A stretch of 64,000 bases of DNA from Blastocystis sp. Blastoise (taxonomy: Eukaryota > Protista > Bigyra: Opalinata): positions 496,001 through 560,000 of the forward strand of contig JBBPEB010000002.1 of NCBI GenBank assembly GCA_039096225.1. Direction: 5' to 3'. Below, one piece after another: positions 1 to 41,817 of the stretch (positions are counted from its first letter, which is position 1; each line of letters begins with the position of its first letter). A program made the translations under genes and the position numbers. Below the pieces are notes generated by a model. That model searched no databases. It saw nothing but the letters and a program-made list of their open reading frames with translations, and was not told where the DNA came from.

Positions 1-230
1 TTCCCATAAAAATGATTTAAAGAGATTTGATTGGTTAAACTAGAGTGACAATAGGTGTGTCACACTTTTTCATTTCGTTTTCTTTTTCTATATATTATCT
101 ACTTACTACTTTACTTTTTAAAAGTAATAAGTAAAGAAGTAAGAAAACCCCATATATAATAAAAAGTTTGGGTGAGATAAAAAGAGCCAGTTCGGATTTA
201 TTTGATTGGTTGAACGAAATATTGGTTCAT
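1..230 (+). repeat. Left terminal inverted repeat of element 1
   Basis: Blocks TTTGATTGG, TGAC-N9-GTCA, TACTTACTACTTTA, AACCCCATATATA, AAAGAGCCAGTTCGGA, TTTGATTGGTTGAACGAAA recur in reverse complement, same order, at 24271-24502. Confidence 0.85.
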
Positions 231-390
231 TTTTTTCATTTCGTTTTCTTTTTCTATATATTATCTACTTACTTACTACTTTACTTTTTAAAAGTAATAA
301 GTAAAGAAGTAAGAAAACCCCATATATAATAAAAAGTTTGGGTGAGATAAAAAGAGCCAGTTCGGAATCATTTGATTGGATGAACAAAAT
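66..390 (+). repeat. Near-identical ~170-bp tandem duplication inside the left end
   Basis: 66-196 is repeated at ~233-366 with one extra 4-nt TACT/ACTT unit. Confidence 0.9.
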
Positions 391-569
391 GTTTTTCTTG
401 AAATAATTTCAAATAAAAACATTCAATTTGATATCTTTTAAATTTACCCCTGGATTTCTTTTTTCATTATAAAAATTTAATAAATAAAATATACCCCCAT
501 GGTTATAATTTTTTTTATTTTTTTTTAATTTAAAATATTTTTCATTTTTATTTTATTTTTAGAAAAAAA

Positions 570-974
570 ATGAGTGAAAATACTTTAATATTTGGTGAAA
601 AAGAAAAAGACAGGTATTTTGCTATTTATGTTATTTATAAATTATATAGTTTCATTGAAGACCACAATCAAATGAAAAAAGATGCTTGTGATATATTAAG
701 AGCTGACTTAGCAGAGTGTTCATTAGTTAATACAGCCATGAAAGTAACTAATCCCAAAAACAAAGGAGAAAAGTATATATTAAGCAAACAAATGATAGAT
801 TTTTTTGAAAAAGAATACTCTCCAGCAGTTAAAAAGTTAATCGGTTTACTTGAAAAAAGTGATGATAATCTTATTGATATCTATAATAAAAATAAAGAAG
901 ATTTTATTAATTTTGATAAATGTTTTGATAAGATGCTTGATTATCAGTCTAGAATATCGAAATATTTTCATTAA
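570..974 (+). CDS. Hypothetical protein (element 1 terminal region)
   Basis: 134-aa ORF, ATG after A-run, normal composition; no recognised motif. Confidence 0.6.
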   Translation: MSENTLIFGEKEKDRYFAIYVIYKLYSFIEDHNQMKKDACDILRADLAECSLVNTAMKVTNPKNKGEKYILSKQMIDFFEKEYSPAVKKLIGLLEKSDDNLIDIYNKNKEDFINFDKCFDKMLDYQSRISKYFH

Positions 975-1156
975 AAATATTGAATTCCTATTAGTAGTTT
1001 TTTGTTTATTTTTTTAAATTTTTAAACCACTAAAATCGAATATTCTTTTTAAATATCTAAAAAAGAATAATTAGAACTGACTCTATTTAAAAATATATTT
1101 TAATAATTTCACATAATTTATTTATTTTTTAATTTTTTAAAAGTGGATATTTACGA

Positions 1157-1441
1157 ATGGATAAGGAAATTAATAACACCCAGGATGTATGTAAAGATGT
1201 TGAAATGGATTCAGATCATCCTAAAACACCTAAGAAGCCCCGCCAACCCCGTGCAGTCTCAATAATTAAACGTAAAGGTGAAGATATTCAAGTTATTCCT
1301 GATTATTTACTGGTTTTCCTTAAGAATTTTAAAGTTATGCTTGATGATCTGCTAATGAATGATATGACCCAACGTCAGAAAATTGATGAATTATTTGAAA
1401 ATGATGAATCATCAAATTCTAAAAGAAAAAGAACTGCTTAA
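1157..1441 (+). CDS. Hypothetical small protein with basic NLS-like patches
   Basis: 94 aa, PKKPR and KRKR; followed by TGTTTTGTT at ~1476. Confidence 0.6.
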   Translation: MDKEINNTQDVCKDVEMDSDHPKTPKKPRQPRAVSIIKRKGEDIQVIPDYLLVFLKNFKVMLDDLLMNDMTQRQKIDELFENDESSNSKRKRTA

Positions 1442-1715
1442 TTTGTCTTAAAATTATCATTAATTAATAAAATTTTGTTTTGTTTTCTTTAAAACTGTTG
1501 GATAAATATCTTTAAGCCCATAATACACAACTCTATTAATTTTTTATAATAAAATGTAATTTAACCCCTGGATAATAACATTCCAGCCCCTGGATTGTTT
1601 CTCTATTATTTTTTAATAATAAACTTTCAATACCCCCTGGATCACTAAAAACGAAATCTTTTTTATTTTATTATAAATTTATTTTCATATTTATTTATAT
1701 TTATTTGGTGAAAAA

Positions 1716-1952
1716 ATGAAATTTTCGTTACAACACGATTTGATGACTGCCTGCTTAAATATTAAAAGATTGCAGCGTATGATCACAAAGATGCAGGAGG
1801 AAATAGATGATATGGTTGATACTATTGATAGAATTAATGATACTGTTCTAGAAGATTATTTAGAATTAACTGATGAAGATGATGATATTGAAGATCCTCC
1901 AAAATCACCAAGAAGTCCTCGAAGTATGGTCGAAAAAATCTTAAAATTTTAA
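1716..1952 (+). CDS. Hypothetical coiled-coil/acidic protein
   Basis: 78 aa, heptad-like N-half, SPR repeats; followed by TGTTTTGTT at ~2002. Confidence 0.6.
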   Translation: MKFSLQHDLMTACLNIKRLQRMITKMQEEIDDMVDTIDRINDTVLEDYLELTDEDDDIEDPPKSPRSPRSMVEKILKF

Positions 1953-2052
1953 TTCATCTGCTTTTTATTTTTATCATATGAGTTTTAAATATATTCAGTT
2001 TTGTTTTGTTTTGTTTCTAAAACTTCACATAATTATTTTATTCTGATAAAAA

Positions 2053-2988
2053 ATGAGAAATAAAAATTTTGATGCCATTAAGTTAGCAATAATCAAAAGT
2101 ACCAATTGTGCTGGAAGTAAACGTAAATTTGCTATTATTATAGAAAAATATATTGAATATTTGCCTTGGGAAAAATTTAAGCAATTCTTGGAAAATCCTT
2201 ATGCTTTTGCTGATGAATTGGTGAATAAGAAGTTTATTAAGATTCATGAACTGCTGAAATTATCTGAATTAATCTTATATTTAATAAAGGTAAAACACTT
2301 TGAATCTAATTTTTGTGAAGATATTCATAATGATTGGTTAGAATTTAAAGATATTATTAAGAGTGCTTATGAACAATCCCTTCGTGAAAAGAAATCTGCT
2401 AGAATAGAAAATCTTCGAAAAGAATATCCAAATATAGAATCATTGGAATGTAAACGTGATGAATTAGATAAAGATGATATACTTAGAATTATTATTGATT
2501 TATATATATTATGTCCTCCTCAACGTGCTGATTATGGTATATGTTCTATTCAAACACCAGAAACTGTAACTAATAAAATGAGAAATTATATCATTTTTGA
2601 TAAGAATAATGAAACTGCTGAAATTCATCTGAAAGATTATAAGACTTCATATAAATATGAAGAAATTATAATTAAGAATAATGATAAGTTATATGAAGAC
2701 ATGAACTATATGTTAGAAAAAGAACCTGGTAGAGTGTTTATATTTGAAAAGACTCCTGGTAAACCATTTTGTGATGTTAAAGATTATGATAGATATATTA
2801 ATAATCATTTACGTAGATTACATCCAGAATTAACTATTAATGGTTGTCGTTTCTATTATGCTACTACAAATTGTACTTCTTTTTCTTCTTTAAGAGATGA
2901 TTCTGATAGATTAGCTCATACTAAAAGAACTCATATTGGTAGTTATGTATCTTTTACTCAAAGTGATTTATATAAAAAATTAATTTAA
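2053..2988 (+). CDS. Tyrosine recombinase A (PLV-type)
   Basis: PPQRADY (R), DYKT (K), INGCR (R), LAH..THIGSY (H,Y); homolog at 40300-41247. Confidence 0.85.
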   Translation: MRNKNFDAIKLAIIKSTNCAGSKRKFAIIIEKYIEYLPWEKFKQFLENPYAFADELVNKKFIKIHELLKLSELILYLIKVKHFESNFCEDIHNDWLEFKDIIKSAYEQSLREKKSARIENLRKEYPNIESLECKRDELDKDDILRIIIDLYILCPPQRADYGICSIQTPETVTNKMRNYIIFDKNNETAEIHLKDYKTSYKYEEIIIKNNDKLYEDMNYMLEKEPGRVFIFEKTPGKPFCDVKDYDRYINNHLRRLHPELTINGCRFYYATTNCTSFSSLRDDSDRLAHTKRTHIGSYVSFTQSDLYKKLI

Positions 2989-3079
2989 TTATTATTTGTT
3001 TATTTAAAAAAAAAAGTTGTTTAGTTTTAAAAAAATTATTTTATTATAACAAAACACAATAATTATAAAAACATATATA

Positions 3080-3565
3080 TTAATGACAATTATTATTAGA
3101 GAATAAATTAATAGGATTAGGAGAAAAATTATAATTATTTAAGACTTCATTAGTAGACGGCAAGGAGTAGAAATCTTCATGATTTTGTATATCTTTTGGA
3201 ATAGGGATATTAACTTGTTTTTCAAGTTGTGTAGATAAATGAGGCATCGTTTCAGAATTAACAGGATTTGAGATAGGAGACGTGACATTGATTTGATTTT
3301 TTTCTTTGTTTCTTGAGTGTTCTTCAATTTCATAATATAAATTATCTAAAGTATTTTCTAAATATTGTTTTTGTTCAGGATTAGAAATATAAATGATTAA
3401 ATTTCTAATAGAATCTAATTCTCTCTTTTGTATTGGACGAGTATGAAAATTAAGAAATTGTTCAACCAATTTAAAGAAATCATTTCCTTTACATTTACAT
3501 GCATCTAATTGAAGACTTTTAATATTTTTTGAGAATGTTGGCCACGGTAGAGGTTGACGATACAT
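3080..3565 (-). CDS. Conserved hypothetical viral protein
   Basis: LVEQFLN..RNLIIYI..LENTLD aligns with LLEQFLN..RNMLLYI..LEMLLD of 41321-41722, same syntenic slot. Confidence 0.75.
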   Translation of the reverse strand: MYRQPLPWPTFSKNIKSLQLDACKCKGNDFFKLVEQFLNFHTRPIQKRELDSIRNLIIYISNPEQKQYLENTLDNLYYEIEEHSRNKEKNQINVTSPISNPVNSETMPHLSTQLEKQVNIPIPKDIQNHEDFYSLPSTNEVLNNYNFSPNPINLFSNNNCH

Positions 3566-3634
3566 ATTAATTAAAAATTAAATAATTATGATTAATGTTT
3601 TAATCTAATAAAATATATTCGTTTTTATATTCGT

Positions 3635-4204
3635 TTATGTAGGTATGATGGTACCTAAACTAGTTAAATATAATAATGCATAATAGAAACATCCATTAGA
3701 GTTTGAAGCAGTACTTTGGAATTGAATAGGGTTGTATTGAATATTATGTGTCTTAATAAATTGTGGAGAAAATTCTGGAGAATTCCCAAGACTGGAATAG
3801 AATTTCATATGTTCTGGACTTTCATAGATAACAGCTTCAAAATGACCGAAATTAGGGTCATCTTCAGATTGATGAAATAACATATTAAAGTTAGATTTTA
3901 TATTATCAATATTATGTTCAAAATCATTTAAATTATCCCAATATTTCCATGAACCTTTACATTGTGTATTCAGATTTTTCATTGTAGAATCTGCTATATC
4001 ACATGCAACAGGGTCACATGGATTATTTAAATATCCATATTTATATATTTTTGAAATTAAGTTTCTATTAATTATACCAGATAATTGAGCCAATGATTTA
4101 GCTATACTATCCAGAGGTTTAGGCTGACTAGATAATTGTTTATCAGAATAAATTTTTGTATTACAATTTAATTTATCTTGAATAATATCTTCATCAGGGC
4201 TCAC
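3635..4204 (-). CDS. Adenain/Ulp1-like cysteine protease (probably made as a -1 frameshift fusion)
   Basis: GHFEAV..YSSLG..NPIQFQ..NGCFYY (H..Q..C pattern); no ATG at start, frame open back to the A_AAA_AAC site at 4225-4231. Confidence 0.8.
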   Translation of the reverse strand: MSPDEDIIQDKLNCNTKIYSDKQLSSQPKPLDSIAKSLAQLSGIINRNLISKIYKYGYLNNPCDPVACDIADSTMKNLNTQCKGSWKYWDNLNDFEHNIDNIKSNFNMLFHQSEDDPNFGHFEAVIYESPEHMKFYSSLGNSPEFSPQFIKTHNIQYNPIQFQSTASNSNGCFYYALLYLTSLGTIIPT

Positions 4205-4206
4205 TT

Positions 4207-5325
4207 TTAAACCTCTGGTTGGTAGTTTTTTTGTAATCCAGCTCCTTCACCACAACCATTTTGTTGACATTGTCGTTTAGCAGCTTTACATTTTTGCATA
4301 TATTCATAAAAGGCACGACCACATAATTTTCTTGGTTTTTTCAATCCAGAAGCATTATTAGGTTGCATTGCTTCTGCTAATGCTCTTTTCTTTGCTTCTA
4401 TTTCTTGTTCTTGATAAACATTATCTACATTATTATCTAATTTATTATTTTCATTGGCTTTTCTCCAAAATTCAGGTGTGAATATTTTGCCAATTGCACG
4501 TGGAATTGCTGCAATATTATTTCCTAAATTCGTGACACCATCTTTTATTGCATTTGGATTAGTTGCTAATCCTTCAAATGCTTTTGAAGCCGCACCAATA
4601 CCAGCCAACATTGTAAGGAATCCACCACCTTCTTTCCAAAATTTTCCACCACGACGTACAGTACATCCGTTACCACTTGAATCACCTGAAAAATTAATAT
4701 AAGAACACAATTGTCTTTTTGAGGGTCTTTTAATACCACATCCAACTTTATTTAACCCTTTACCACCTAAATTCATGGTACTTGCTATACTTCTTATAAT
4801 TGAAGGTGGAATTAGCATTCCAGCACGAATTCTATGTTTTGACCATTTCTTATAATCTTTCATAGCTTCTTGAGAATAGCCAGCTGCTTTTAATACACCT
4901 TGACCAATTGAATTATATAATTTTGACATTTCTGCTTTATTAAAAGCTAATCCATTTCCATTTTTTGGTTCTAAAGCATCTGATTCTGAAATTACTTTTT
5001 TATTTGTAATTCCACGTCCATTTCTTTGAATACCTATTCTTGTAACTGGATTAGCAACAACCAATGAACCACCAGAATCACCATTATTATCACCAAACAT
5101 TTTATCTCGATTAACATAATTATCAACATTACCATTATTGACTTTTTGTGTTTTTAATTGTCTTGTCTTTGCAACACTATTTTCAGGTATTGCTACCATT
5201 AATGGATTATGCCTTTCAGCATTATTTAATGGTTGTGTAATATAATTTCTATTTTCTTTTCCATGTCCTAAATGAATAATACCTTTATCACCTGGACTTG
5301 GATATTTTAATATAGTTTGTTCCAT
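4207..5325 (-). CDS. Gly/Lys/Arg-rich putative virion core precursor 1
   Basis: Start MEQTILKYPSPG (5325) aligns with MQSCILGMPSPG of 42384-44111; many GG/GxG motifs like adenain cleavage sites. Confidence 0.6.
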   Translation of the reverse strand: MEQTILKYPSPGDKGIIHLGHGKENRNYITQPLNNAERHNPLMVAIPENSVAKTRQLKTQKVNNGNVDNYVNRDKMFGDNNGDSGGSLVVANPVTRIGIQRNGRGITNKKVISESDALEPKNGNGLAFNKAEMSKLYNSIGQGVLKAAGYSQEAMKDYKKWSKHRIRAGMLIPPSIIRSIASTMNLGGKGLNKVGCGIKRPSKRQLCSYINFSGDSSGNGCTVRRGGKFWKEGGGFLTMLAGIGAASKAFEGLATNPNAIKDGVTNLGNNIAAIPRAIGKIFTPEFWRKANENNKLDNNVDNVYQEQEIEAKKRALAEAMQPNNASGLKKPRKLCGRAFYEYMQKCKAAKRQCQQNGCGEGAGLQKNYQPEV

Positions 5326-5359
5326 ATATATATAATAAAAAATAAATAAAAAATAAATA

Positions 5360-6160
5360 TTAAGCAATTTTAATTGTTACATCTGAATATTCATCATAAT
5401 TTTTAATATTAAATTTATTCTTACGAATATATCGTAAAACCTCTTTATAATATACATTATTTCGACCTAATTCAACAAGCATATTCTCATTATCAGATAA
5501 GTATATATGTAATGTTTCAGGAGCAGACTTTAAATAGTTTATTAACTTATTGTTATCAAATATTATAGGTATATATTTATCATACATATTCATATAGGGT
5601 GGGTCCATATAAATAATACCATTTTGTATATTTTTAAGTAAATCATGATAATAATCACCACAAATAAATGAAACAGGCTGAATTAATTCTGAAATTTCTT
5701 TCAAATCATTTTCAGTATAAATAATAGGATTAGTATAATTACCATAACCAACATTAAATTTTCCTTCACGATTTATTCTCCATACACCATGATAACATGT
5801 TTTATTTAAATACAGAAATAATGCAGCACGTTCTATAGAATCTTTACTTTCATTAAATATTGTTCTATATTTATAATAATGTTCACAATCTATTTTATCA
5901 TGAATATTTTTTAAATAATCAACAATAAGTCTATAATCTAATTGGAGTATTTTCCAAAAATTAATTAAATCTGAACACATATCACATGCAAAATATTTTC
6001 GAGTAATATTATTAGTTTTATCAAATTTTAATACATTAATTAATATTGTTCCACCACCTAAGAATGGTTCATAATAATCTAAATTATTATTAAATCGTTC
6101 TTTAATAACAAAATCAGAAACAATATAATCTTTATTTCCAACCCATTTTAATAATGGCAT
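5360..6160 (-). CDS. dam: DNA adenine methyltransferase (Dam/D12 class)
   Basis: LKWVGNK, EPFLGGG (SAM-binding), FLYLNKTCYHG..R.N..G.FN, YMDPPY catalytic motif. Confidence 0.92.
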   Translation of the reverse strand: MPLLKWVGNKDYIVSDFVIKERFNNNLDYYEPFLGGGTILINVLKFDKTNNITRKYFACDMCSDLINFWKILQLDYRLIVDYLKNIHDKIDCEHYYKYRTIFNESKDSIERAALFLYLNKTCYHGVWRINREGKFNVGYGNYTNPIIYTENDLKEISELIQPVSFICGDYYHDLLKNIQNGIIYMDPPYMNMYDKYIPIIFDNNKLINYLKSAPETLHIYLSDNENMLVELGRNNVYYKEVLRYIRKNKFNIKNYDEYSDVTIKIA

Positions 6161-6319
6161 TTTATTTTAAGTTATTAAATTAATTATTTATGTCATTTAA
6201 ATAATCTTTAGAAACAAAACACATAAAAAATATAAAATAATTAATAATTTAACAATATAAGAAAATAAGAAAAATATATATAAAAAATTACATAATAAAT
6301 ACCTTATAAGAAAGAAGAT

Positions 6320-7612
6320 ATGATATTTAAAGAATTATTAATTTCTACTCCATTTATTCCTGATTATTTTGAAAATGATGATGCAATGAAAGCTATACAT
6401 AAATTTGAAGAACATATAAATAGATATGCTGGATTTAATCATGAATATGCTAATTATTTAATGCAAATATTATGTAGTTCTTTCTATTATGATTCTAATA
6501 AAGGGTTTTCTTATTTATTTTATGGACCAGATGGTGCTAACGGAAAAACACTAACAGGTGATTTATTATCTTCGATAATTGGTGATAACCAAGCAATTAC
6601 TGTGAATCCAGGTAATTTTGAATCAAAAGAAACACAACCTAAATTAATTGAAATGAGTAATAAACTTATGTATTACGTAAATGAATTAGATGAAGTATCT
6701 AGTAGTAAATTCAGTAATCCCGTAAATGTATTTAATACTCGAATATTTAAAGAATTAGCTGAAAAGAAATCAGGAGCTTCAGCGAGAAATTTATATTCGA
6801 AATCATATGATTCTATTAATTATACGGGAACATTATTTATTACGTCAAATATTCAACCAGGTTCTCGTAATACTCAACCATTACTTCGTCGTGTTTGTTT
6901 CCTTTACGGTGTTTCTCGATATTATGATAAGGCAGACCGTAACTTATACGAGATTGAATATAAGAATGACGAAAATAATTCGTTAAAAAGAATTATGATA
7001 ATTCCCGAAGATTCAAATATGCCGAAAAGATATAAGCCGAATCATTACCCGATGGACCCTTCGATAAAAGATTATTTCGAAAATTATAAATCCTATATAT
7101 TCTCGTATCTTGTCGATAATTATTTTTATTTAAGTACAAAATTAACGATAGGGAAACTTGATAGTTGTAAAATAATGGCTGAATGTAAATCACAATTTAT
7201 CGAGAAATCCAATAGCTTATACGATATGGATGAATTTGTCGAGAAACAAATATCTGTCGACCCTTATATGTTAAATGTCGTAAGCCTCGATGATTTATTT
7301 AATGCTTATCTTAGTCATACCTTTGATAGAAAATTTACGTTAAAGAAAGATAAAGAGACTTTTCGTAAATCATTTTTTGGTTGTTTACAGAATAAACCAC
7401 AATATATTTGTATCGATATGCATAATTTAGATTTGACACACAAATCCGAATATTATGTTGGTAACCAATTACGTGGAATCCTAGGATTATTAATTAATAA
7501 AAGATACAATGAAAAAGTATTGTTCAGTCATTATTGTGAAATGAATAAAGGACGTATTGGTCATCCTCCTAACGAAGATGGATACTTTAACGGATTTCAA
7601 AATAAAATATAA
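6320..7612 (+). pseudogene. 5'-truncated D5-like SF3 helicase (primase domain missing)
   Basis: YGPDGANGKT Walker A, YVNE, FITSN, LLRR; aligns only with the C-terminal part of 46975-49977. Homology (PYKKED) starts upstream of the ATG and is cut by TAA at 6296-6298. Confidence 0.75.
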
Positions 7613-7744
7613 TAATTATTTTTTTTTAATTTTATTTTTATTCTTTTTATTCGTTTTATTTTATTGTTTAGTTTAAATCATTCAAAATACAATAATTTAT
7701 ATTAACAAAACAATATAAAAATATAATCATTTTTTTTTACAAAT

Positions 7745-9580
7745 TTAACAATAGAATTTACAATTAAAAAAATTATTTTTTTTGTGTGGTATTTTTGTTC
7801 TAAATAATCCTAAACCAATAGAACGTGTAAATAAATGTGTTCTTGGAACACAAATGCCACTACCAATATTTTCATTATTATCATTTTCATTTAAATATCC
7901 AGGATGTTCATTTCTATGAGGTCTTTTATCAGGTACAAGTGGTTCATGACGACATTCCCATTGGTTAATTGCGCTTGCAGCAAATGTTTCTCTGGTTGTT
8001 CGGACTTTATAACGTCTATTTATATCATATTGATTGGTTAATTCATGACATTTTGAAATATATTTTTCATAATATTGTTTATGTTGTAATGTAATATTTT
8101 CAATATCCAATCCTTCTGATTCTTTAGGAACATCATTATTTAAATCAATTAAATTTGGATATTTATTATTTTTTAAATCATCATAATATTGTTGAACTTT
8201 TTCTTTAAATTCATTTAAACCATTTAATGAAGAAATGAATATTGTTGATGAACCAGGTTCTTTACCTAATAATTCAGGTCCAAATACATCTGTATAATCT
8301 TCATGATAAGTATCTAATCTTTGAATAAAACGGTCATAAATTAATTTATCTCTTTCTTTATCATCTTTATCCATCATCATAAATAATGAATCTTCAGTTA
8401 ATGGAATTTGTCTTGTAATATTATCTAATACTTTTATATGTTTTCCACCTTCTAATAAATATGGAGAAATATAATTATTCATATGTGTTGTTTGTGAATG
8501 AAGCATTTTTGAAATACTATTTACAAATACACGAATAGCTTTTCTATGTTCATCTGGATTTCCTGTACCTTCAAGTATTTTCATTTGTCTATAATAATGT
8601 TGTGCAAATAAATGACGAATCATATCACAACCAGTAATTAATTGTTTTTCTTGATTATATTCATTTGTATAATGATATAATTCTCCTAAATGGTCTTTTA
8701 TATAATCACCAAAATTACTATCATTAACTGGACTATCAAGTCTATCTCCGGAAGTAAATAAATAATTACGGGGACATAAACGTAATGACCTAGCTAAAAC
8801 ATTCATTAATTCTTCAGTTATATATTGTAATGTAGGATATAAGTTATAACCAATTTCAAATTTATTTTTAGTATCATTTACGTGTATAGTTAATGTATTT
8901 AAATCAATATAATTTGTACTTTTACGTAAAGTTAATGGGATTACATCACCTCTTCTATATATTCGACATATACCATAATCATTTCTACAACATAGACAAT
9001 CATAACATAATACTAATAAATATGAATTAACATAAAATAAATCATTTGGATGTTCAATGTAATTCTGTTTACAACGTTGTATTAATTGACCCCAATCACA
9101 TTTTGCACTAATAATTTTATTTGTATATTCTTTATGACGAAGATTTGTTGCATCAACATTTAAAGAACCAAAATGTTGAGTCCACTTTTTAATATTTTTA
9201 TTACTAAATACAGAATGTCTTAATATATCATTATCATCTGTACATAATTCAATATTTTTCATTATATAAGTAAACATTTGCATATAATTTGATATTGTTG
9301 TAACTGACAAACCTCCTTGTTGTCCACGTGCAGATGTAGGTAAATTCATTAATGTTTCTTGAAATGCTTCAGGATTCCCAAGAATTTCAATACATAAATA
9401 TGTTTTGGGGTCTAAAGTTCCTTCTTCAATACCTTGTTGCATTTTTACAGATATATTATGTATCCAATTTTTCCAATTAATACTAGTTGATTCTTGTATC
9501 TTTCTAAAATGTCTTAATTGATTAACACACATTACAAAAAAATCTTCACATTCTTGTGGAGAATCACCACGTGATTGCAT
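7745..9580 (-). CDS. Tyrosine recombinase B (large, with N- and C-terminal extensions)
   Basis: CCRNDY (R), NDTKN (K), DMIRH (R), MLHSQTTHMNNY (H,Y); homolog at 50023-51819. Confidence 0.8.
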   Translation of the reverse strand: MQSRGDSPQECEDFFVMCVNQLRHFRKIQESTSINWKNWIHNISVKMQQGIEEGTLDPKTYLCIEILGNPEAFQETLMNLPTSARGQQGGLSVTTISNYMQMFTYIMKNIELCTDDNDILRHSVFSNKNIKKWTQHFGSLNVDATNLRHKEYTNKIISAKCDWGQLIQRCKQNYIEHPNDLFYVNSYLLVLCYDCLCCRNDYGICRIYRRGDVIPLTLRKSTNYIDLNTLTIHVNDTKNKFEIGYNLYPTLQYITEELMNVLARSLRLCPRNYLFTSGDRLDSPVNDSNFGDYIKDHLGELYHYTNEYNQEKQLITGCDMIRHLFAQHYYRQMKILEGTGNPDEHRKAIRVFVNSISKMLHSQTTHMNNYISPYLLEGGKHIKVLDNITRQIPLTEDSLFMMMDKDDKERDKLIYDRFIQRLDTYHEDYTDVFGPELLGKEPGSSTIFISSLNGLNEFKEKVQQYYDDLKNNKYPNLIDLNNDVPKESEGLDIENITLQHKQYYEKYISKCHELTNQYDINRRYKVRTTRETFAASAINQWECRHEPLVPDKRPHRNEHPGYLNENDNNENIGSGICVPRTHLFTRSIGLGLFRTKIPHKKNNFFNCKFYC

Positions 9581-9626
9581 TTTATTTTATTTTATATAAT
9601 AAAAGTAATTTTTTTTAAAATTAATT

Positions 9627-12525
9627 TTATAAATAACTTATAGTTAATTTTACTATACATTTACATTCACTTCTTATTGCATAAATATTCACTTTAGGTA
9701 ATTGATATAAACATTGTCTATTACAATGATATATATTTTGTTTAATACTAGATTTAACACTTTCATAACTTTGGTCTATATTATAGAAATATGGTAGATT
9801 TTCTTTATTAACTATATGTAGTATATTTTGATAATAATTATTACTAGCATATAAGTATATTTTATATTGCCCTTTTTCTTCTATATTATCAGATATAACT
9901 TGTATATTTGTTAAATATGCATTTTGATATTGACTATTCTTTTGTAATTGAAATGATAATGTTGAAATTTCATTAAAATCACAATAAACTTCATCATAAT
10001 CATTAAATTTTACTATATTTTGTTCAGGTTCACAAATACATAATGCTATAGTACCTTTAAATAACTTTGTAAATCTTGTATTATTTGTTGAATAGTAATT
10101 GGAGCATTAATACAACTATAATGTAAATAAGGTGTATTTGTTTGAAATATAAAATTAGGTTCTGGACTTCCATTAATATAACAACAATTAATTTGTTCAT
10201 CTGTTGTAACAGATTTATTTAAAATAATTACATCTTTAATTACTTTTTTTCTAAATTAACTGTAGGTAATGTTTTTGTAAATATAATATCTTGTGTTTCA
10301 CAACTAAGACATAAATTCTTTATTGTTTCATGAGGAAACATAGCATTAATACTATCTCTTAATTCTATAAACCCATTTAATTCAGTTCCATCATTAATTT
10401 TTATATAATTTCCATAAAAACCACTAAATCTAAACCATAATTCATTAATATGTGTTAATCCAGGATGTACTTTAGTATTTACCATTTCATGTAATTGATT
10501 ATTACCTATTGGATTACTTATAGGTATACTACATAATGCATTAGAACTATTATCTACTAAATTACTATGACAACGTAACATTGATTTTCCTTGTGTTATA
10601 TCAGCTGGATTTTCACTTATAATAATAGAATTATCAATTATATCTGTTTTATAATATCTAACAAATGTATATGTATATTTTCTTGTTGTAGAAAAATCTG
10701 TTATTTGTATTTTATCATAAGGATAATTTGTTTTTATAAAATACCATGAATGTTGTTGATTATATGACCCAATGTATTTTTTTCCATCTAATCCATAATA
10801 TTCTTTATTTGATTCAACTGTAAATATAGTAATTTCTATTTCATTATATGAATACCAAAGACGTATTTTATTTAATGTAGCAAAATCTGTCCATATACTA
10901 TTTATACCTAATAGTGTTTTTTCTATTAATTCAATATCTGTATAACTACCTTCAGGAACTAAGGTTGTACGTTCAGTTGTTGCATTATTTACAATGTCTT
11001 CCCTCACTTTTGTGACAATTGCCATGACAATAGCTGACTGTCACTTTCAGTCAGACTTAAATTGACTTAGTCATAAAAATATAAAATTACACTGTCAAAA
11101 ATAAATATTTTGTCACAAATTTTGGTGACAATTGCCACGTGGCAATTTCGTCCAGTGACAGGGAAGACACTGATTATTTATTTTAAATGTATTATTTGTA
11201 GAATTTATTATAATTGGTAAATATATTAGTGTTTGAGATATTTCAGCTTTATAACTTGTATTTCTATATCCTAAAATCTTTTGTATATTAGGTCCCATAG
11301 AAAAATCAAATGATTTTCCAACCATATAAACATGACCATAAGGAATATTATATTCATTAACTCCACCAAAACCTGTAGAAGGATTTGTTGGTTTAGTAGG
11401 ATTTTGTGGTTCTTGACCATCTGAATTTAATTTATAATTAATATAATATAAATTTAATGGTTGTGTTCCACCAAAACTAGTATATAAAGGTATATTTTGA
11501 TTATATCCCTTATAATATGATAATGAATTATCCAATCCTTGAGTATAAAATTGATAACATTGTGTATTTTCATTATTTGTATCTGTTATTCTCCAACCAG
11601 GTAACGATAAATCTTGTTTTAATATTAAATTATCATATTCTTTATGAATAGAAACTCTTAATGCAGTATTAAATTCTGCTTCTGTATAATCACCAGTTGG
11701 AACAATAATTAATTTCTTATCATTTGTTGGAACATGAACTAAAAATATTTTATTATGTTCTTCATCAATATGATATTTATTGGTTCTACGAAATTTATAT
11801 GTATTTTTCTTAACAACATCATAATCGGTAATACAGACATTATCTATTACTTTTAATTGACTATCAGTTGAACTACATACAAAATAAAATGTATCTTTAT
11901 AACTATATGAACCAGTATATGTAACACCATCATAATATGTTTTTGTTTCATTAGCTTTGGCAATATACATAGTAATAGCATTTAAATCATATGTAATAAA
12001 CCAATATAATTTCTTTTGAGCAATACCATCCCATATATTAGACATTTGTTTTGTTAATTCTTGCATATATTCATAATCATAATAATCTCCATTAGGTATT
12101 GTTAATGTATATACTTTATCATACATCCATATTTCAAATTTATTATTATTTTCATTAATTGTAAATTTTGTTTCAATTGGTTCTGGATATGTTTCTATTC
12201 CATATGTTTTAATAGTATTCACAGGATTAGAAGGTAATGCTATTTGAAATCCATATGCTTTTAAGATATCTGCTAACGTATAATAAGTATTAGGATATAA
12301 ATATGTGTAAGAACCATTATAAAAATTCACTGTTTCTTGATTATTCATATTTGTATAAAAAATAGGAATATTTGTATTTCCTTTTAAATTTAAATCAACA
12401 AATCCAATAGTATCAGATTGAACATCAATATTATCATCTAGAGATACCGTAAATTCATTATTTTTACATATTGCATGAATAGGTATTATTTGTGTTTTTA
12501 TTCGAGGGTCACTATCTTCAACCAT
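9627..12525 (-). pseudogene. Long penton/minor-capsid-like gene broken by a MITE and two frameshifts
   Basis: ORFs 11113-12525 and 10240-11025 are in one frame and rejoin (FKINN-ATTERTT) when the MITE plus one TSD is removed; shifted frames continue to CIVKLTISYL*, matching CVVLLTISYI* of 52378-54861. Confidence 0.8.
10992..11172 (-). mobile_element. hAT-type MITE, copy 1
   Basis: Termini CAATGTCTTCCC / GGGAAGACACTG; exact 8-bp TSD ATTATTTA at 10984-10991 and 11173-11180; related to 26612-26804. Confidence 0.92.
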
Positions 12526-12594
12526 TTAAATTAATTATTTAAAATTAAATAAATTTAATTTTATAGAAAATTTTTAGAATAAAAATTATTAATA

Positions 12595-14121
12595 ATGTCA
12601 TCAACAAGATTAGTTAGATATACTGAACCTATAAATATTCAAAGTGGAGTTGACTTAATGAATAGTCAATATGCATTTCATTTTGAATGGACAAATACTG
12701 ATAATAAATTTGTTGATTTTAGTCAATCTTATATTGATTTAGTTGTTCGTACTTCTTCTTATGTAGATCCTGATACAAGTCATAGAATTCCAGAATTTAT
12801 CGAAGGTTGGTCAAGTTATTTAGGAACACAAAATAAATACAATAATGTTAAATGGTTAACTCCAGAAATGTTTATGCATGAACATATTGATGAAATGAAT
12901 CAAAGAGCTAATATTTATTCTATTATAGATAGTACAGAAATTGATATGAATTATGTTCATCCTTCTGGTAAAGAAAAAGCATTAAAAGTAATTGATAGTT
13001 GTATACATGCTAGTAGAGGTCGTAAAATGATTGCATTAAAAGATTTAGATAAAGATATTATTGAAAAATCTATGTATAATGAATCTTTATTTGCTCCTGT
13101 AAAAGGATTAAATTCTTTACGTTTTATTCGAACACATCCAGACCAAGATATTCATATTGCTATTCCTTTGAATTTAATTTGTGCATTAGGTGCTGATAGA
13201 GATAGTGCTGTATTAGTACAACATTTAAAAATGCTTTTTCGTACATCTCTTTTAACTTCATTAGTTGAAAATAATAAAAGTATTCCTTATAGATTTGCTG
13301 ATGTAACAAAAACATCCGATGGATGGATTCCTGCACCAACTAAATGGACATATTTTGATGTAAAATGGTTTAACGATTTTAAATTAATTAGTGCCTCTAT
13401 GACATTAATGACTTATCAGAATATATCATTTCAAAGACATGAATTATTTAAAAGTGTTCCTTCTTATACTCAAGTAGATTATTTTCAAGAAAAAATTACT
13501 GATAGTGTTTCTATTATTAATAAACCTGTTGCTTTTTTCCCTGAATATATCTTATTTTGGTTTAGTGATGGATTCGATTTTAATATTACACCAAATATTG
13601 CTAGTCCCTCTATTTGGCCAGAATATTTAAGTTGTATTTGTGGTAATATACAAATTTTCCCTCAAACTGAATTTCCTACAACTAAATATGGTTATGATAT
13701 TACTAATAAAGGTCATTGTGAAGATGATAATGAACCTTTATCTATTTATAGACCTAATATAGCTTTATATAATATATGGGCAGATAATTCTGTTCTTAAT
13801 ACAGCTGTGAAATATAATGAATGGATAAAACATCCAATATATGTTATTCCTGTTAATAATTTAGCTAATGTTCGTAGTAATACTGGTATGGCATTAATAT
13901 TTGAATCAAAATTACGTGCAAATAAACTTATTTTAAATCATATTGATGATAGTATTTTACCAGATTTTGACAGTTATAATCCTGGAATAACAGAACAAGG
14001 AAATGCAATAGTTCAAGTTAATAGTCATCCTGGATTACAATATACTTATAATACATCAATTAATAAGAATAATCCTTATACTTTACACATGCTTTGTGTT
14101 CGTTCTGCTAGAGATATTTAA
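12595..14121 (+). CDS. Putative major capsid protein 1 (double jelly-roll)
   Basis: 508 aa, beta-rich, N-terminal FVDFSQSYIDL motif; lies in the penton-MCP-ATPase block; paralog of 14183, ortholog of 54944. Confidence 0.65.
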   Translation: MSSTRLVRYTEPINIQSGVDLMNSQYAFHFEWTNTDNKFVDFSQSYIDLVVRTSSYVDPDTSHRIPEFIEGWSSYLGTQNKYNNVKWLTPEMFMHEHIDEMNQRANIYSIIDSTEIDMNYVHPSGKEKALKVIDSCIHASRGRKMIALKDLDKDIIEKSMYNESLFAPVKGLNSLRFIRTHPDQDIHIAIPLNLICALGADRDSAVLVQHLKMLFRTSLLTSLVENNKSIPYRFADVTKTSDGWIPAPTKWTYFDVKWFNDFKLISASMTLMTYQNISFQRHELFKSVPSYTQVDYFQEKITDSVSIINKPVAFFPEYILFWFSDGFDFNITPNIASPSIWPEYLSCICGNIQIFPQTEFPTTKYGYDITNKGHCEDDNEPLSIYRPNIALYNIWADNSVLNTAVKYNEWIKHPIYVIPVNNLANVRSNTGMALIFESKLRANKLILNHIDDSILPDFDSYNPGITEQGNAIVQVNSHPGLQYTYNTSINKNNPYTLHMLCVRSARDI

Positions 14122-14182
14122 TTCTTAAAGAACATAAATATTTTTTTTTAATTCATCAAAATTATTTCAAAAAATAATAATA

Positions 14183-15493
14183 ATGAGTAAAATTCCTGCT
14201 GCTTTTAATCCTAGTAAAAATTATCAAACTATAAAAAATACACAAACACCTATTAGTATAACAAATAATCAATCCTTAATGGACCAACCTTATGTTTTTG
14301 ATTTTTGTTATAACAGTGTGGATAGTCCATATATTGATTTTTCTAATAGTTATATTGAATTATGGCTTAATGTTAGAGCTGTATCCACTAGTGAGCCACC
14401 TGCTACTATTCAAGAATGTAACTTATATTCAATTATTGATAAATTAGCTATTACAATGACATATATAAGTCCTACTGGTGTAGATGTTGCTGTAAATTAT
14501 ACTGAAAATAGTATTGATAGTAGTAAAGCTAGAAAATTTATAGCTTTAAAAGAATTAAGTAAAGATGAAATTGATAGAAGTGTATATTGTGCCAGTGGTG
14601 AAGATTTATATGCTGTAAAAGATAACGTAGAATCTATTAAATTTATGGAATACAGTTCAGGCTCATTAAAAGATACTGTTTATAAAGTAGCAATTCCATT
14701 TATGTTAATTAGTGGTTTAGGTACATTTAATTGTGCTATTAAGGTAAAAACATTAAAAATACAAGTTACTACAAATTATTTAAGAAACATGTGTTCTAAT
14801 ATTGGTAGAATAACACAATTTAATTTATCTCGTGCTTATATTACATTTAAACAAATTTATGATATTAATTGGAAAGGAAATCCTATGGCTCTTATGCGAT
14901 GTATTCCTAATAACTGTCAATTATGTACATTTAGTACTCCATGTTATGAATGGAGTTATACAAATAGTGGAACACAAAATGTCGTTTTAACTCCTTCTGG
15001 AACATTTATTAATAGTCGTAGTGTTAACTTTATTCCAGATTATTGTTTAATGTATTTTACTGATAAAGCAGGAAGTATGTTCCCTATAAATACAGAAATT
15101 CCTACAACTGTATCTTTTCAAATTGGTGGTATTAATGTCACAGGTAGAGAAGATTATCCTCCACAATATAAAAAATTATTTAATTCAAAATCATCGACAA
15201 ATAACGGTTGGACTGGATATTTAACTCCTAATATTGCTCTTTATAATGATTGGAGAGCAAACTGTCATGAACAATCTCCATTAATTGGTGAAAAATGGTA
15301 TGAACAACCATTATATATATTCCCTATTTCCAGTTCAGTGGATGTAAATAATCAATCTGGTGTTGAAGTTAATATTACATTACATAGTACACGTTCAACT
15401 ACTGTTTCTACAGCTGCTGGAAAGACTTTATATTGGATACCTTATGTTAATTTTATTTTTGTGAAGTTTATTAGAAACGGTGCAATGAATTAA
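14183..15493 (+). CDS. Putative major capsid protein 2
   Basis: 436 aa, YIDFSNSYIEL, NLYSIID, S.ARK.IALKEL shared with MCP1; ortholog of 56615. Confidence 0.65.
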   Translation: MSKIPAAFNPSKNYQTIKNTQTPISITNNQSLMDQPYVFDFCYNSVDSPYIDFSNSYIELWLNVRAVSTSEPPATIQECNLYSIIDKLAITMTYISPTGVDVAVNYTENSIDSSKARKFIALKELSKDEIDRSVYCASGEDLYAVKDNVESIKFMEYSSGSLKDTVYKVAIPFMLISGLGTFNCAIKVKTLKIQVTTNYLRNMCSNIGRITQFNLSRAYITFKQIYDINWKGNPMALMRCIPNNCQLCTFSTPCYEWSYTNSGTQNVVLTPSGTFINSRSVNFIPDYCLMYFTDKAGSMFPINTEIPTTVSFQIGGINVTGREDYPPQYKKLFNSKSSTNNGWTGYLTPNIALYNDWRANCHEQSPLIGEKWYEQPLYIFPISSSVDVNNQSGVEVNITLHSTRSTTVSTAAGKTLYWIPYVNFIFVKFIRNGAMN

Positions 15494-15535
15494 TTTTAAT
15501 TTTAAATTTAATTTTTTTTATTATCATAAAAAAAC

Positions 15536-15904
15536 ATGGAAGCTGTATCTCATATGAGTTGTATAAATAGTAGTTTTTATCTTGAAAGATTTAATAATAC
15601 GTTAAATTTAAATAATAAAAATATTACTTATATAAATACTATGATTAATACACTAAAAATAAGAAGTAATAATGATATAACAATGTTACGAGTATATTGT
15701 AATTTTATTGATCATGATAATGATTTAATCATGATTCCTTTATATGCTGAACAAGGATTGGATAATATTTATTCATTAAGTAATATTTCTATTCCTTGTA
15801 TAAATGGTCAATATAATGAAATTTATTGGGAAATATATGACCAATTATATCGTCCAATAACTCTTGATGAAGGAGCTTTAACTATTCATTTTACTGCATG
15901 TTAA
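15536..15904 (+). CDS. Short penton/minor-capsid-like protein (lacks internal ~100 aa)
   Basis: MLRVYCNFID..IPLYAEQG..WEIYDQL aligns with both ends of 57936-58616. Confidence 0.6.
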   Translation: MEAVSHMSCINSSFYLERFNNTLNLNNKNITYINTMINTLKIRSNNDITMLRVYCNFIDHDNDLIMIPLYAEQGLDNIYSLSNISIPCINGQYNEIYWEIYDQLYRPITLDEGALTIHFTAC

Positions 15905-15987
15905 TAATTTTGAGTTTAAATATTGTATTAAGTATAAAGAATTATTATATCAATTATTGTGTTTTGTTTATCAAATAAAATTATTTT

Positions 15988-17037
15988 ATGCCAAAAGAAA
16001 ACAACCAATTAAAATCTAAAAATAAATCATTAGGAGCATTATCATTTAAATTTGATGAAACTGGTGTAGAGACTTATGAATCTAAATTTATTATGATTAT
16101 TGCAAAAACAATGTCTGGAAAATCATTTTTAACCGTGAATTTGTTATGTTGTATGGATTTAGATAATAAATATAGTCAAGTAACATTATTTTGCCCTGAT
16201 GCTTCTAATAAAAATTAATGTTATGCTGGATTACGAGATATTTTGAAACATGCTGATATAAAATTTCAATGGTATGATAGTGAAGATGAAAAATTTAAAA
16301 AGATACGTAATGTAAATGATTTAGTTACAGTTTATAATATTCCACAACACAATTTTATTGTATTAGATGATATATATCCATTAACAATGTATACTAAAGA
16401 ATTAATAATGTCTATATTATCACGTGGAAGACATTATAAACAAAATATGATATGTTGCTTACAAAGTCATTTAAAAATTACAATTCAGTCTATTATTAAT
16501 CAAGTTAGTCATTTATTTGTGAATAGCCAATTACTTAAAGTGAATTTAGATTTTGTTACAGATAAATTAGATTTACCAGTGAATAACCTAAATGAAATTA
16601 TGAATGATACACAATTATTAGAAGACCCTCATCAATTTTATATGTACGCACAAGGTAGTTATGAATTAATACCATGGAAAAATCCTGAATAGAAATCAAA
16701 AGAGGAATTATATAGAATTGTAAAAAAAAGAAAATGGACTGAAGCAGATGAAAAAAAGGAAAAGGAAAAAGAAAAAGAATATAGAAACAATTCTTTATCA
16801 GCAATTTCGAATAAAAAAACTTTAGAAAATATTGAGTCAAAAAAATTGAAAAAATTATTTAATATTGAAGATGATTTTACACCACCAAATATAGAAGAAG
16901 AAAATGAAAATATTCATGGGGATGATGTAATGAGTTTAATCAATAATGAAATAAGAAATCAACGTCAATTAAGCATATATAATCCCTTTAATGAAGGTCG
17001 TCAATTTCTTAATTTTCCTTTAAATAATGAATTTTAA
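15988..17037 (+). pseudogene. A32/FtsK-type packaging ATPase pseudogene
   Basis: AKTMSGKS, FIVLDD, SRGRHY; in-frame TAA 16216-16218 (Glu in element 2), TAG 16690-16692 and a later frameshift; aligns with 58688-59725. Confidence 0.88.
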
Positions 17038-17073
17038 CTTTAATTTGTTTTTATTTTAATTTTATTTTCCTAA

Positions 17074-17868
17074 ATGAGTAGTATCGTTAGACGTAATTTA
17101 GCCTATAACTGTGACCCATCGAAATATGGTGCGGGATTGAATATCCCAGATAAACAAGAAAAAGTAAAAACTTTCAAAAACAGTTATGGTGGTGGATATA
17201 TTGAGGATGAATGTGATAGTGTTTCTAGTTATTCATCATCTGAATCATCATATAGTAGTGATTCATATTCTTCATCAGATAGTAGTGATTCATCTTCTGT
17301 TTATTCTTCTGATGCTGATGATGAAGACACAAATGAAGATGATGGTGATGAAGAAAAAACTGATGGCCCGTAACATTAATTAGAAAAGGTCAAGTATTAT
17401 CAAAGTAAAAAGAAGAAAAAGCCAACAACACAAACGACAACAACATCATCAACATCATCAACAGCAAAAAATAATAAATGGAAATATTATTTTAAATTAG
17501 CTAAGAAATTTATTATTCAAGCTGGAAAGTTATGTTTACATTTAGGTTTGTCATTTGTGTTATCATTAATTTTTAAAGTCTATATAAATGACTTATGGGT
17601 TACTGGTCATGGTACTATAATAAATGCATTTGGTAGATTTTTTAGTAAAGTAATAAGTTTCCTCGGATTTGGTGGTGGATTAAATGGCCCAAATAAAGAT
17701 GTTAATAATGCAAGTGTATCATTGCTAAAAGATGAAATAGATAAGCAAAGAATGAAACCTGGAAATGAAGATATTAATTCAAAAAATGTATCATCTGATT
17801 TAATAGCAAAAACAATGTACACATTAATAGCATTAGACAAATTCATGCATCATGTAAAAAAAAAATAA
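17074..17868 (+). pseudogene. Conserved viral gene split by two in-frame stops
   Basis: MSSIVRRNLAYNCDP matches MSSITKRYLKQNCDP (59781); ORFs 17074 and 17548 are in frame, separated by TAA-CAT-TAA. Confidence 0.6.
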
Positions 17869-17902
17869 AATCCACATAATTTATTTATAAATTCTTTATT
17901 AT

Positions 17903-18085
17903 ATGGAATCAATAAATCAAAATAACTATACGTCATTAAATCATATTTTACAACGTAATTTTGTTGAACAAAGTTGGGACCCATGGTTACCTAACATGTA
18001 TATATGCCAAGATGAACAACCTACACAGCCTATTGCTCACGACCCTTTACTACCTAATTCTATGATAAATTTAGCCCCACATTAA
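17903..18085 (+). CDS. Short or truncated homolog of 60883-62061
   Basis: QSWDPWLPN.YICQDEQP.QP.AHDP nearly identical to the N-terminus of the 392-aa element 2 protein. Confidence 0.7.
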   Translation: MESINQNNYTSLNHILQRNFVEQSWDPWLPNMYICQDEQPTQPIAHDPLLPNSMINLAPH

Positions 18086-18195
18086 ATGATATTTTATTTA
18101 CTTTATATATATAAATATTTTTAAATAAATGTTGGTCTTTTTAATATTTTGTTTAGTTCATTAAATTTTTATATTTTTCTATACTTAAAAGAAAA

Positions 18196-19287
18196 ATGGA
18201 AAGTAATTACATGACAAATACAAAAACAATGACTGGAATTAATAGACTTGCTATTGGTAAAGAGTATTCACCATATAAAGGAAAATCATATGTTCATGAT
18301 ACAAATTATCATAAAGGAGTCCATTGGAATTCTAAAGCTAATTCTTATTTTACAAAACAACAAGAAATTGATGATTCTATTAATCAATCATTTGGTGCTG
18401 GTATCGCTGGATTTATAAGAAATAGTCCAAATAAATCAGTTTTTAAAAGTTTACAACATCCTCATCACAATAATTATGGTGGTGGAATTAATCATCATGG
18501 TTGTTTATCCAATGAAATGGCAAAAAGACTAATTATTACTAATGATTATATTATTCCAAAATTAATTGAACAAAATCATTCCTGTGGAGCTGGTTTAAAG
18601 AAAATCATTAATAAAGAAGCAATTATTGATAATTTTGATTTTAGTGACAAATATGGAGGTAATATACATGTCAAAAAAGGTGGAGCATGGAAAATATTAA
18701 GTACCATTAATAAATATTTACCATTTAAAAGAAATAATGTTTCAAAGAATATTCCAAAAGGTGACGATGATGAAGATATGCCCCCTAGAAGTCATGGATC
18801 AGTAGCTGCTGATTGGAGAGCTTATACTGAAAGGAAACTGAAACATTTAAAAGAAATGGGTAAAATTGCCTTAGTAGCAGGAAAAAAAGATTTAGGCATG
18901 ATAAAAGACACATTTCTTCATCCTGAACCAGATACTACAATTAAAGACAGATTTGACAGTATAAAGCAAAATAGTAGTTTGGTGAAAAAATTTAAAAAAC
19001 TCTACAAGCAAGGCGAAACTAGATATAATACATATCTTTTCAGTAATCCTAAAAATGAAAGTCCCCTCATTGATAGCACATCAACTGATTTTTTTAGATA
19101 TGTTCAAGCAGGTATCGCTGCAAAACAAGAAATAAAGCAAAAAATTCATCATATAAAAAATCAATTATTTAATCATGGAGATAAAAAAAAACCTTATGTT
19201 AAACCCAAAATTGGTGAAACATATCGTGATGCAAATAAAAGCAAAAATGGAGACTTAATCATCAATCCGCATTGTATCGACCTCTGA
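18196..19287 (+). CDS. Putative core precursor 2 (paralog of core 1)
   Basis: GINRLAIGKEY resembles GIIHLGHGKEN/GMNLISTGKEY; GAG, GGG, KKGG motifs; ortholog of 62184. Confidence 0.6.
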   Translation: MESNYMTNTKTMTGINRLAIGKEYSPYKGKSYVHDTNYHKGVHWNSKANSYFTKQQEIDDSINQSFGAGIAGFIRNSPNKSVFKSLQHPHHNNYGGGINHHGCLSNEMAKRLIITNDYIIPKLIEQNHSCGAGLKKIINKEAIIDNFDFSDKYGGNIHVKKGGAWKILSTINKYLPFKRNNVSKNIPKGDDDEDMPPRSHGSVAADWRAYTERKLKHLKEMGKIALVAGKKDLGMIKDTFLHPEPDTTIKDRFDSIKQNSSLVKKFKKLYKQGETRYNTYLFSNPKNESPLIDSTSTDFFRYVQAGIAAKQEIKQKIHHIKNQLFNHGDKKKPYVKPKIGETYRDANKSKNGDLIINPHCIDL

Positions 19288-19327
19288 AGAAATTAGAAAA
19301 GAAATTATTAAGGATAATAATGCTAGT

Positions 19328-41813: not shown

Positions 41814-41817
41814 TGTT

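Follow-up and report, generated by a model that had tools for sequence, protein, structure and literature searches.

A predicted programmed -1 ribosomal frameshift links a core-like protein to a clan CE protease in two polinton-like elements of Blastocystis

The genome of Blastocystis sp. Blastoise (GenBank assembly GCA_039096225.1) carries, in contig JBBPEB010000002.1, two polinton-like elements that lie within the stretch analysed here, the 64,000 nucleotides from position 496,001 to 560,000 of the forward strand (the window; all positions given are those of the window). In both elements a gene for a core-like protein overlaps a protease reading frame placed in the -1 frame, and in our judgement it is very likely that the overlap is the site of a programmed -1 ribosomal frameshift giving a minor core-protease fusion. 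An earlier note, made from the letters of the window, had proposed such a frameshift for the first of the two elements (element 1). The same slippery heptamer, followed by a covarying stem, is present in the second, diverged element (element 2), which argues that ribosomes are likely to slip back one base at this point.

In element 1 the upstream, core-like gene occupies 4207..5325 of the minus strand and encodes 372 residues in what we take as the 0 frame, with its ATG at 5325 and its stop at 4209-4207. Its 3' end on that strand reads CAA AAA AAC TAC CAA CCA GAG GTT TAA, correct to the base in the earlier note, and the heptamer A_AAA_AAC (4225..4231, minus strand; 4231-4225 in the direction of reading) is in phase with the core frame. 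The protease open reading frame (ORF; 3635..4246, minus strand) runs in the -1 frame from 4246 to 3635, with 196 codons after the slip site, and has no ATG near its start, the first in-frame one being at 3982, 88 codons in. The two ORFs overlap by 40 nucleotides and the core stop falls five codons past the heptamer. A spacer of 6 nucleotides (4219..4224, minus strand) separates the heptamer from an 11-nucleotide arm, CCAGAGGTTTA (4218-4208, minus strand), which covers most of the core stop codon and is the exact reverse complement of TAAACCTCTGG (4121-4111, minus strand), located within the protease coding region (Pro-Lys-Pro-Leu-Asp codons). The phase, the missing start codon, this geometry of 11 base pairs over an 86-nucleotide loop, and the predicted transframe junction LQK(N/K)LPTRGLK are all as the note had described them. 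Ten of the pairs have predicted probabilities of 0.78-1.0, and the outermost one 0.43. The predicted fusion, of about 563 residues, would include the protease His (3844-3842) and Cys (3691-3689) codons, both on the minus strand.

Element 2 repeats this arrangement on the same strand. Its core-like gene (42384..44111, minus strand; 575 residues, ending SKNSGEGIW-stop) contains A_AAA_AAC, in phase, at 42405..42411, and the protease ORF (41818..42447, minus strand) lies in the -1 frame, for a predicted fusion of about 764 residues. After a spacer of 7 nucleotides come a 5' stem arm at 42388..42397 and its 3' partner at 42292..42301 (both minus strand), in the register of element 1 and different from it in sequence. 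The canonical features of a -1 cassette, an in-phase X_XXY_YYZ and a predicted structure 6 or 7 nucleotides beyond it, are present in both elements. The two proteases are 50% identical, the C-termini of the two cores do not align, and the junction cassettes align without gaps. When the element 1 stem register is laid on this two-element alignment, 21 of 22 cells pair and element 2 keeps 10 of the 11 pairs, five of the 11 having changed on both sides between the elements and one on one side. Shuffling reached this level of covariation in 16 of 500 cases, which is about the floor for two sequences, and registers slid away from the true one paired at 23-55%; RNAalifold recovers the same helix unaided from the alignment, and the element 2 stem 7 nucleotides after the heptamer has a z-score (z) of -3.5. 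What the DNA shows directly is an in-phase heptamer within a -1 overlap, followed by a stem that the second element conserves with compensatory changes.

Controls on the strength of the signal gave the following picture. The 125 nucleotides after the element 1 heptamer fold with -28.5 kcal/mol (z -4.5), a value reached by none of 200 shuffles. Synonymous-codon resampling of element 1, with the protein kept fixed, produced a Watson-Crick stem of at least 11 base pairs in 7 of 2000 trials. In neither element did any of 400 such resamplings equal the folding energy. In-phase A_AAA_AAC occurs at two of the 11,808 codon positions of 29 element ORFs, both of them core/protease junctions; with 1.4 expected, the heptamer is not avoided elsewhere in the element ORFs. 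Five pairs of long same-strand ORFs overlap in the window, and the two with -1 geometry each have the heptamer. Along core and protease, the element 2 site (z -4.2) is the sole one of 27 folding windows below -1.1; the element 1 site has the lowest z of 26, with 4 of the 25 others at -3 or lower, and a low z by itself is not unique to the site in element 1. An Rfam scan of 3900-4400 returned six matches, all far below the gathering score, and a covariance model built from the two sequences and run over the window recovered only its own two sites (next best E 0.07). In a simple scan for pseudoknots, loop-to-downstream pairings of 6-7 base pairs were found in each element, none of them in a shared register.

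The downstream frame is predicted to adopt a clan CE viral protease fold, which backs the protease call of the earlier note. With the element 1 model (pLDDT, the predicted local distance difference test, 65), the best viral match in Foldseek is the MELD-virus protease A0A8S5L5S2 (E 2e-5, probability 1.0), followed weakly by Sputnik V9 and an adintovirus adenain. The African swine fever virus (ASFV) protease pS273R aligns to the model with Z 7.1 and a root-mean-square deviation of 4.1 over 132 aligned residues, and proteases and effectors of clan CE, or related to them, fill nearly all of the top 26 rows of VIA-align (highest Z 7.2). A Foldseek search of the PDB with the first protease model gave no match at E 0.001, a PDB sequence search gave nothing meaningful, and a search for near-length homologues from the single protease retained 0 of 33 candidates. 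In an alignment of eight protease sequences His, Gln and Cys are invariant, as is a Glu two residues past the His. Glycine motifs lie near the slip site, L-R-G-G just after it in element 2 and only R-G in element 1, and fused relatives have G-G or G-K-G ahead of the protease; the cleavage consensus of adenain is xGG. The upstream protein of element 1 has a net charge of +27, 11.6% Gly, five xxGG motifs and repeated GG/GxG. Protease-cleaved core precursors of adenoviruses and of large DNA viruses have a similar basic, Gly-rich character with GG motifs, and by this analogy the protein is probably a virion core precursor; it belongs to no Pfam or Atlas family (best Atlas score 0.76, uninformative).

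A survey of other copies, which the note had put forward as a check, found the split at the heptamer again in two families that together account for 21 database entries, element 2 among them. Relatives other than element 2 were compared at the protein level only, and none of their DNA was found among viral, genome and metagenome contigs, phages or plasmids. The core frame reads through the heptamer in 3 of 3 element-1-type and 18 of 18 element-2-type entries, and all 18 of the latter cores (one of them the window's own) end SKNSGEGIW just past the slip site. In a third family, four gene models join core and protease at three different points; in one of them the residues allow 8 of 9 Watson-Crick stem pairs, against 2 of 400 random peptide pairs, an intron boundary making this row uncertain.

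Among ENA/Logan contigs, which are mostly short-read assemblies, core and protease occur both fused and apart. In-frame fusions form two clusters, P0004 (30 members; 617 residues in 6 of the 15 listed) and P0024/P0030 (3 members), which indicates that a core-protease fusion is a natural form of these proteins, and at the protein level they retain what immediately follows the slip site. Another three clusters, of 6, 37 and 15 members (36 of them listed, on contigs of up to 24 kb), have a separately called protease of 177 or 190 residues, and the 190-residue proteases begin, in 7 of the 7 checked, at the codon that corresponds to the Leu in the 5' stem arm of the window elements. The free cores of three further clusters end G-F-stop in 15 of 15 cases, internal G-F occurring 6 times in 3166 positions, and such ends can encode a G_GGU_UUU/C slippery heptamer. 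With G_GGU_UUU the -1 frame would open with TTG, a start accepted by bacterial gene callers, and then a codon starting with A, as in 4 of 4 protease starts checked; one G-F-stop core and one split protease, whose longest contig is 23,715 for both, are presumably a pair. The protease P0064 looks recombinant, with an N-terminal part like that of P0038, a split family, and a C-terminal part like that of P0024, a fused one.

A further case is the published Blastocystis-associated MELD virus BK012044, whose Adenain (supplement of PMC11071296) has 176 residues and no Met and adjoins a GG-rich basic gene; four further virus names in the accessible part of that supplement gave no entry. Checked by hand, the first 38 Adenain residues are compatible with a -1 overlap that covers the final 37 residues of its neighbour together with the stop. 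Such an overlap implies eight consecutive A and, in phase, A_AAA_AAG; an assembly error in the A run is possible. Independent support for a -1 frameshift thus comes from the heptamer and covarying stem of element 2, from the fused relatives and from the Met-less protease of BK012044. Across these relatives, the link between core and protease appears to switch between A_AAA_AAC, a different heptamer and in-frame fusion.

In the mechanism that we propose, core and protease would be carried on one mRNA and most ribosomes would end at the core stop, while a minority, delayed by the long-range stem, would re-pair one base back on A_AAA_AAC. The slipped ribosomes would add about 195 residues, to give fusions of 563 residues in element 1 and 764 in element 2. 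Such a fusion would enter the assembling particle together with the core protein, bringing a few protease copies with it, and cleavage at the glycine motifs would then free the protease, as in retroviral Gag-Pro. Slippage, its rate and the single core-protease transcript are what we infer from the junctions, and it is by analogy that the fusion may set protease stoichiometry and packaging.

The single transcript can be approached through TGTTTTGTT, a putative 3'-end signal that lies at 41718..41726 (minus strand), 92 nucleotides past the element 2 protease stop. It follows 14 of the 18 element 2 genes (40291-63724) at a distance of 18-92 nucleotides, convergent genes included; it does not follow the core gene, and the minus strand between the element 2 core start and protease end has none. 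This distribution would fit one core-protease transcript in element 2; in element 1, where no more than 3 of the 18 listed ORFs are followed by the motif, the argument is weak. The motif resembles what we take to be the Blastocystis downstream gene element. That element is reported not to be enriched in genes of tortoise-clade Blastocystis (PMC10690189), and element 2 may, given the likeness, keep a 3'-end signal that host genes lack.

Several points weigh against a programmed frameshift, including those told below with each rival explanation: (i) The covariation rests on only two DNA sequences, and with G-U pairs allowed the element 1 stem length was matched in 111 of 2000 synonymous resamplings. 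(ii) The stimulator would be unusual, a simple stem over an 86-nucleotide loop with no pseudoknot arm common to both elements. (iii) Of the fused families, P0004 retains 4 of 9 stem pairs and cannot form the stem, and P0024 retains 6 of 9, or 8 of 9 with G-U, so that stem loss on fusion is supported for P0004 only. (iv) The position of the usual catalytic Asp is Ser in the protease, and activity is therefore not assured. (v) The "core" label of the upstream protein comes from its likeness to core precursors of other viruses, since no family matches it. (vi) Genes other than core and protease are also interrupted in element 1: the ATPase gene (15979-17037, plus strand) has in-frame stops at 16216 and 16690, and the fibre-like gene lies in three pieces (9627-12525, minus strand), one of its breaks falling at an A7 run (about 10250-10244) with the same -1 geometry as at core/protease. 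The best stem at the A7 site is 6 base pairs (-12 kcal/mol). Both genes are uninterrupted in element 2, as a continuous ATPase ORF at 58676-59725 and as a single fibre-like ORF of 837 residues. Homopolymer breaks therefore do occur in element 1, which looks like a decaying copy. As a separate observation, the element 1 fibre-like gene has a short, repeat-rich insertion at about 11050-11150.

The first rival is splicing, which would join the two frames with the stem bringing the splice sites together. It draws on the gene models of P0001, P0005 and P0006, each with an 89-nucleotide GT..AG intron whose ends fall at the two stem arms (4124..4212 in element 1, minus strand), and introns of tortoise-clade Blastocystis are described as longer and variable (PMC10690189). 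However, taking out 4212-4124 would remove about 30 codons that are conserved as protein in element 2 and in fused and split relatives, and the listed frame-restoring GT..AG pairs with donors near the site, 21 out of 38 in element 1 and 8 out of 15 in element 2, include none at a shared position. Moreover, third-family models disagree, joining at three points, and all 18 element-2-type models just stop; such inconsistent joins and plain stops suggest that the gene finder put in an intron to get across a frame break. We therefore consider splicing very improbable.

If instead the protease were a separate gene, read from its own internal ATG or by reinitiation, the heptamer would be incidental. 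In element 2 an in-frame ATG at 42351, 18 codons past the slip and 13 past the stem-arm Leu, would allow a 177-residue protein with both His and Cys, and ENA/Logan relatives have the like; a later Met is common to all aligned proteases; and two rumen MELD viruses (BK012045, BK012061) have stand-alone, Met-started proteases, so that the frameshift arrangement is not general. On the other hand, element 1 and the third family have Leu at the position of that ATG, the first in-frame ATG of element 1 comes after four out-of-frame ATGs and would lose about 80 conserved residues, the BK012044 protease is entirely without Met, and separate initiation leaves the heptamer and the covarying stem unexplained. 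A separate gene is, in our estimate, a very slim prospect.

The third possibility places the slip at transcription: an extra base, added when RNA polymerase slips on the A run, would leave core and protease in a single frame in part of the mRNAs. Slippage of this kind is known as an alternative to frameshifting by the ribosome (PMC5009743), and runs of A6-A7 are present at the two junctions. Yet in both elements the A run ends in C in the exact phase of X_XXY_YYZ, the stem, which closes 104 nucleotides downstream, cannot act at the polymerase and is placed where a ribosome would meet it, and relatives whose cores end in G-F-stop suggest a heptamer that has no long A run, all of which leaves this explanation highly unlikely.

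Least likely of all, and barely credible, is that the frame break is a long-read homopolymer error or the decay of an integrated copy, in reality one fused gene: both breaks do fall at A runs, of 7 and 6 A, another A7 break and nonsense codons are present in element 1, true in-frame fusions exist, and among three sequencing runs no contig spans 4053-4403, one run containing 0.18 of the words, but the same break is found in 21 database entries of two families, 63 A/T runs of at least 6 sit inside element ORFs that remain uninterrupted, hundreds of ENA/Logan contigs carry split forms, and a sequencing error can neither create a covarying stem nor explain the other lineages. The tortoise-clade Blastocystis assemblies are long-read with short-read polishing (PMC10690189).

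Both elements are about 24 kb in size. Element 1, a decaying polinton-like/MELD-type element, extends approximately over 79..24433 between inverted repeats I1, I3 and I4, and contains two capsid genes, a helicase, two recombinase-like genes and a DNA methylase; element 2 extends approximately over 40168..63998 between inverted repeats (I11), with a gene set like that of element 1. The genes common to both, at about 28-60% identity, are two capsid-like genes, a P-loop ATPase (FtsK match only E 0.054), a helicase, two recombinase-like genes with weak Pfam support and the core/protease pair, and both have genes for which fibre- and penton-like are putative labels. Of the four capsid-like genes, the one that was tested scored 0.97-0.98 in Atlas to viral clusters, some of which have Capsid_N, Capsid_NCLDV or double-jelly-roll (DJR) annotation in 10-17% of their members. 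The elements have the double-jelly-roll capsid, packaging ATPase, protease, size of 15-40 kb and terminal inverted repeats that characterise polinton-like/MELD viruses. A Pfam scan of 25 element ORFs (17 of element 1, 8 of element 2) gave no match to PolB or the rve integrase; as it covered only part of the element 2 ORFs, we do not file the elements as strict polintons or adintoviruses.

Other features of the window are recorded here for completeness. In each element the capsid-like genes are tandem paralogues (12583-15493 and 54926-57838, plus strand), about 26-29% identical within an element and 44-50% between orthologues. Element 1 has, at 5360-6166 (minus strand) and 6299-7612 (plus strand), a D12-class adenine methyltransferase (Pfam E 2e-33) unmatched in element 2, and a helicase ORF without about 560 N-terminal residues that are present in element 2. 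At 19259-22273 (plus strand) lies an acidic, Asn-rich ORF of 1004 codons, in the +1 frame and with a 29-nucleotide overlap relative to a second core-like gene; its first Met is 71 codons in, and it too is unmatched in element 2. A Helitron-like element with Helitron_like_N and a PIF1 helicase is located between the viral elements (34078-39628, minus strand) and is split by an in-frame TGA at about 37207-37209. A 10-nucleotide near-palindromic repeat of the TTCTAGAAGG/TTCTAGAATG type forms the ends of element 2 and also internal intergenic arrays (40170-40237, 41780-41817, 44842-44949, 46754-46917 and 63947-63998), possibly as recombinase or origin sites, and the left end of element 1 (79-393) is a 170-nucleotide tandem duplication, each copy of which matches the right inverted repeat at 24282-24322.

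We regard the junction as real and conserved, and the mechanism proposed for it as a variant of one already known, here in new surroundings, the core-protease pair of a polinton-like virus. On balance we also favour, with less assurance than the frameshift itself, a broader view: that Blastocystis-associated polinton-like viruses as a group make their maturation protease in the manner of Gag-Pro, by a frameshift that extends the core protein with a part able to cleave itself off, the switch being rebuilt several times (A_AAA_AAC, G_GGU_UUU, and the A_AAA_AAG type in BK012044) or replaced by in-frame fusion, a convergence on retroviral assembly logic. If the frameshift is real, it would suggest how these small DNA viruses load and time a few protease molecules per particle, and the frameshifted, differently frameshifted and fused forms would be a natural series in which to study the origin and loss of such a switch. 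It would also account for the wrong annotation of these genes, with introns, with truncated proteins or with ORFs that lack a start. A signal maintained by selection in about 20 genomic copies would further suggest that some elements still make particles, in a protist that is very common in the gut.

RNA viruses, retroelements and phage tail genes provide the textbook cases of programmed -1 frameshifting. The earlier note knew of no description in polinton-like viruses, which holds in part: we found no report of core-protease frameshifting in these viruses, in a literature search that left subscription papers and supplementary genome maps mostly outside, and the accessible part of a Blastocystis review (PMC12835684) adds nothing on it. 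However, section 16 of the preprint PMC11071296 briefly raises the idea for adintoviruses, with -1 slips predicted at the ends of Penton and with potential fusions of Hexon to Adenain ("Hexain"), so that it is not unheard of. The adintovirus predictions share with ours the broad virus group, the protease class and the proposed mechanism; there, the partner is the major capsid or penton protein, and the text available is a brief KnotInFrame suggestion without sites or covariation, whereas the Blastocystis elements offer a core-like partner, covariation, and fused and split relatives. BK012044 (PMC8502044) is associated with Blastocystis, with related protease motifs and a GG-rich basic gene beside the start-less Adenain, but it has PolB and a retrovirus-like integrase where the window elements have a helicase and recombinase-like genes; the accessible part of PMC8502044 makes no remark on the missing start codon.

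Double-stranded DNA viruses that fix the ratio of assembly proteins by a -1 shift are already known in the G/GT genes of lambda-like phages and haloarchaeal tailed viruses, one halovirus shift even using A_AAA_AAC (PMC5009743). These differ from the Blastocystis elements in their prokaryotic hosts and in making tail chaperones instead of a core protein and a protease. The clan CE virion proteases (A0A8S5L5S2, Sputnik V9, ASFV pS273R and adenain) resemble the window proteases in predicted fold and His-Cys order, and usually have Asp where the window elements have Ser. To our knowledge, the other clan CE virion proteases are all stand-alone genes with their own start. In eukaryotes, A_AAA_AAC and G_GGU_UUU are named among the most slippery heptamers (PMC5009743), and A_AAA_AAC with a spacer of 6-8 nucleotides is tabulated for mouse mammary tumour virus (MMTV), human T-cell leukaemia virus (HTLV), bovine leukaemia virus (BLV) and astroviruses (PMC3835772). 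With the Gag-Pro of these retroviruses and the ORF1a/1b of astroviruses the Blastocystis junctions share the heptamer, the spacer length and the -1 overlap, and with retroviral Gag-Pro also, on the reading proposed here, the placing of a structural protein ahead of a maturation protease. They differ from both in belonging to double-stranded DNA elements of the double-jelly-roll kind, with a stem of 10-11 base pairs over an 86-nucleotide loop, no shared pseudoknot and slippage that is predicted, and from retroviruses in that the retroviral protease is aspartic, whereas that of the Blastocystis elements is a predicted cysteine protease of clan CE.

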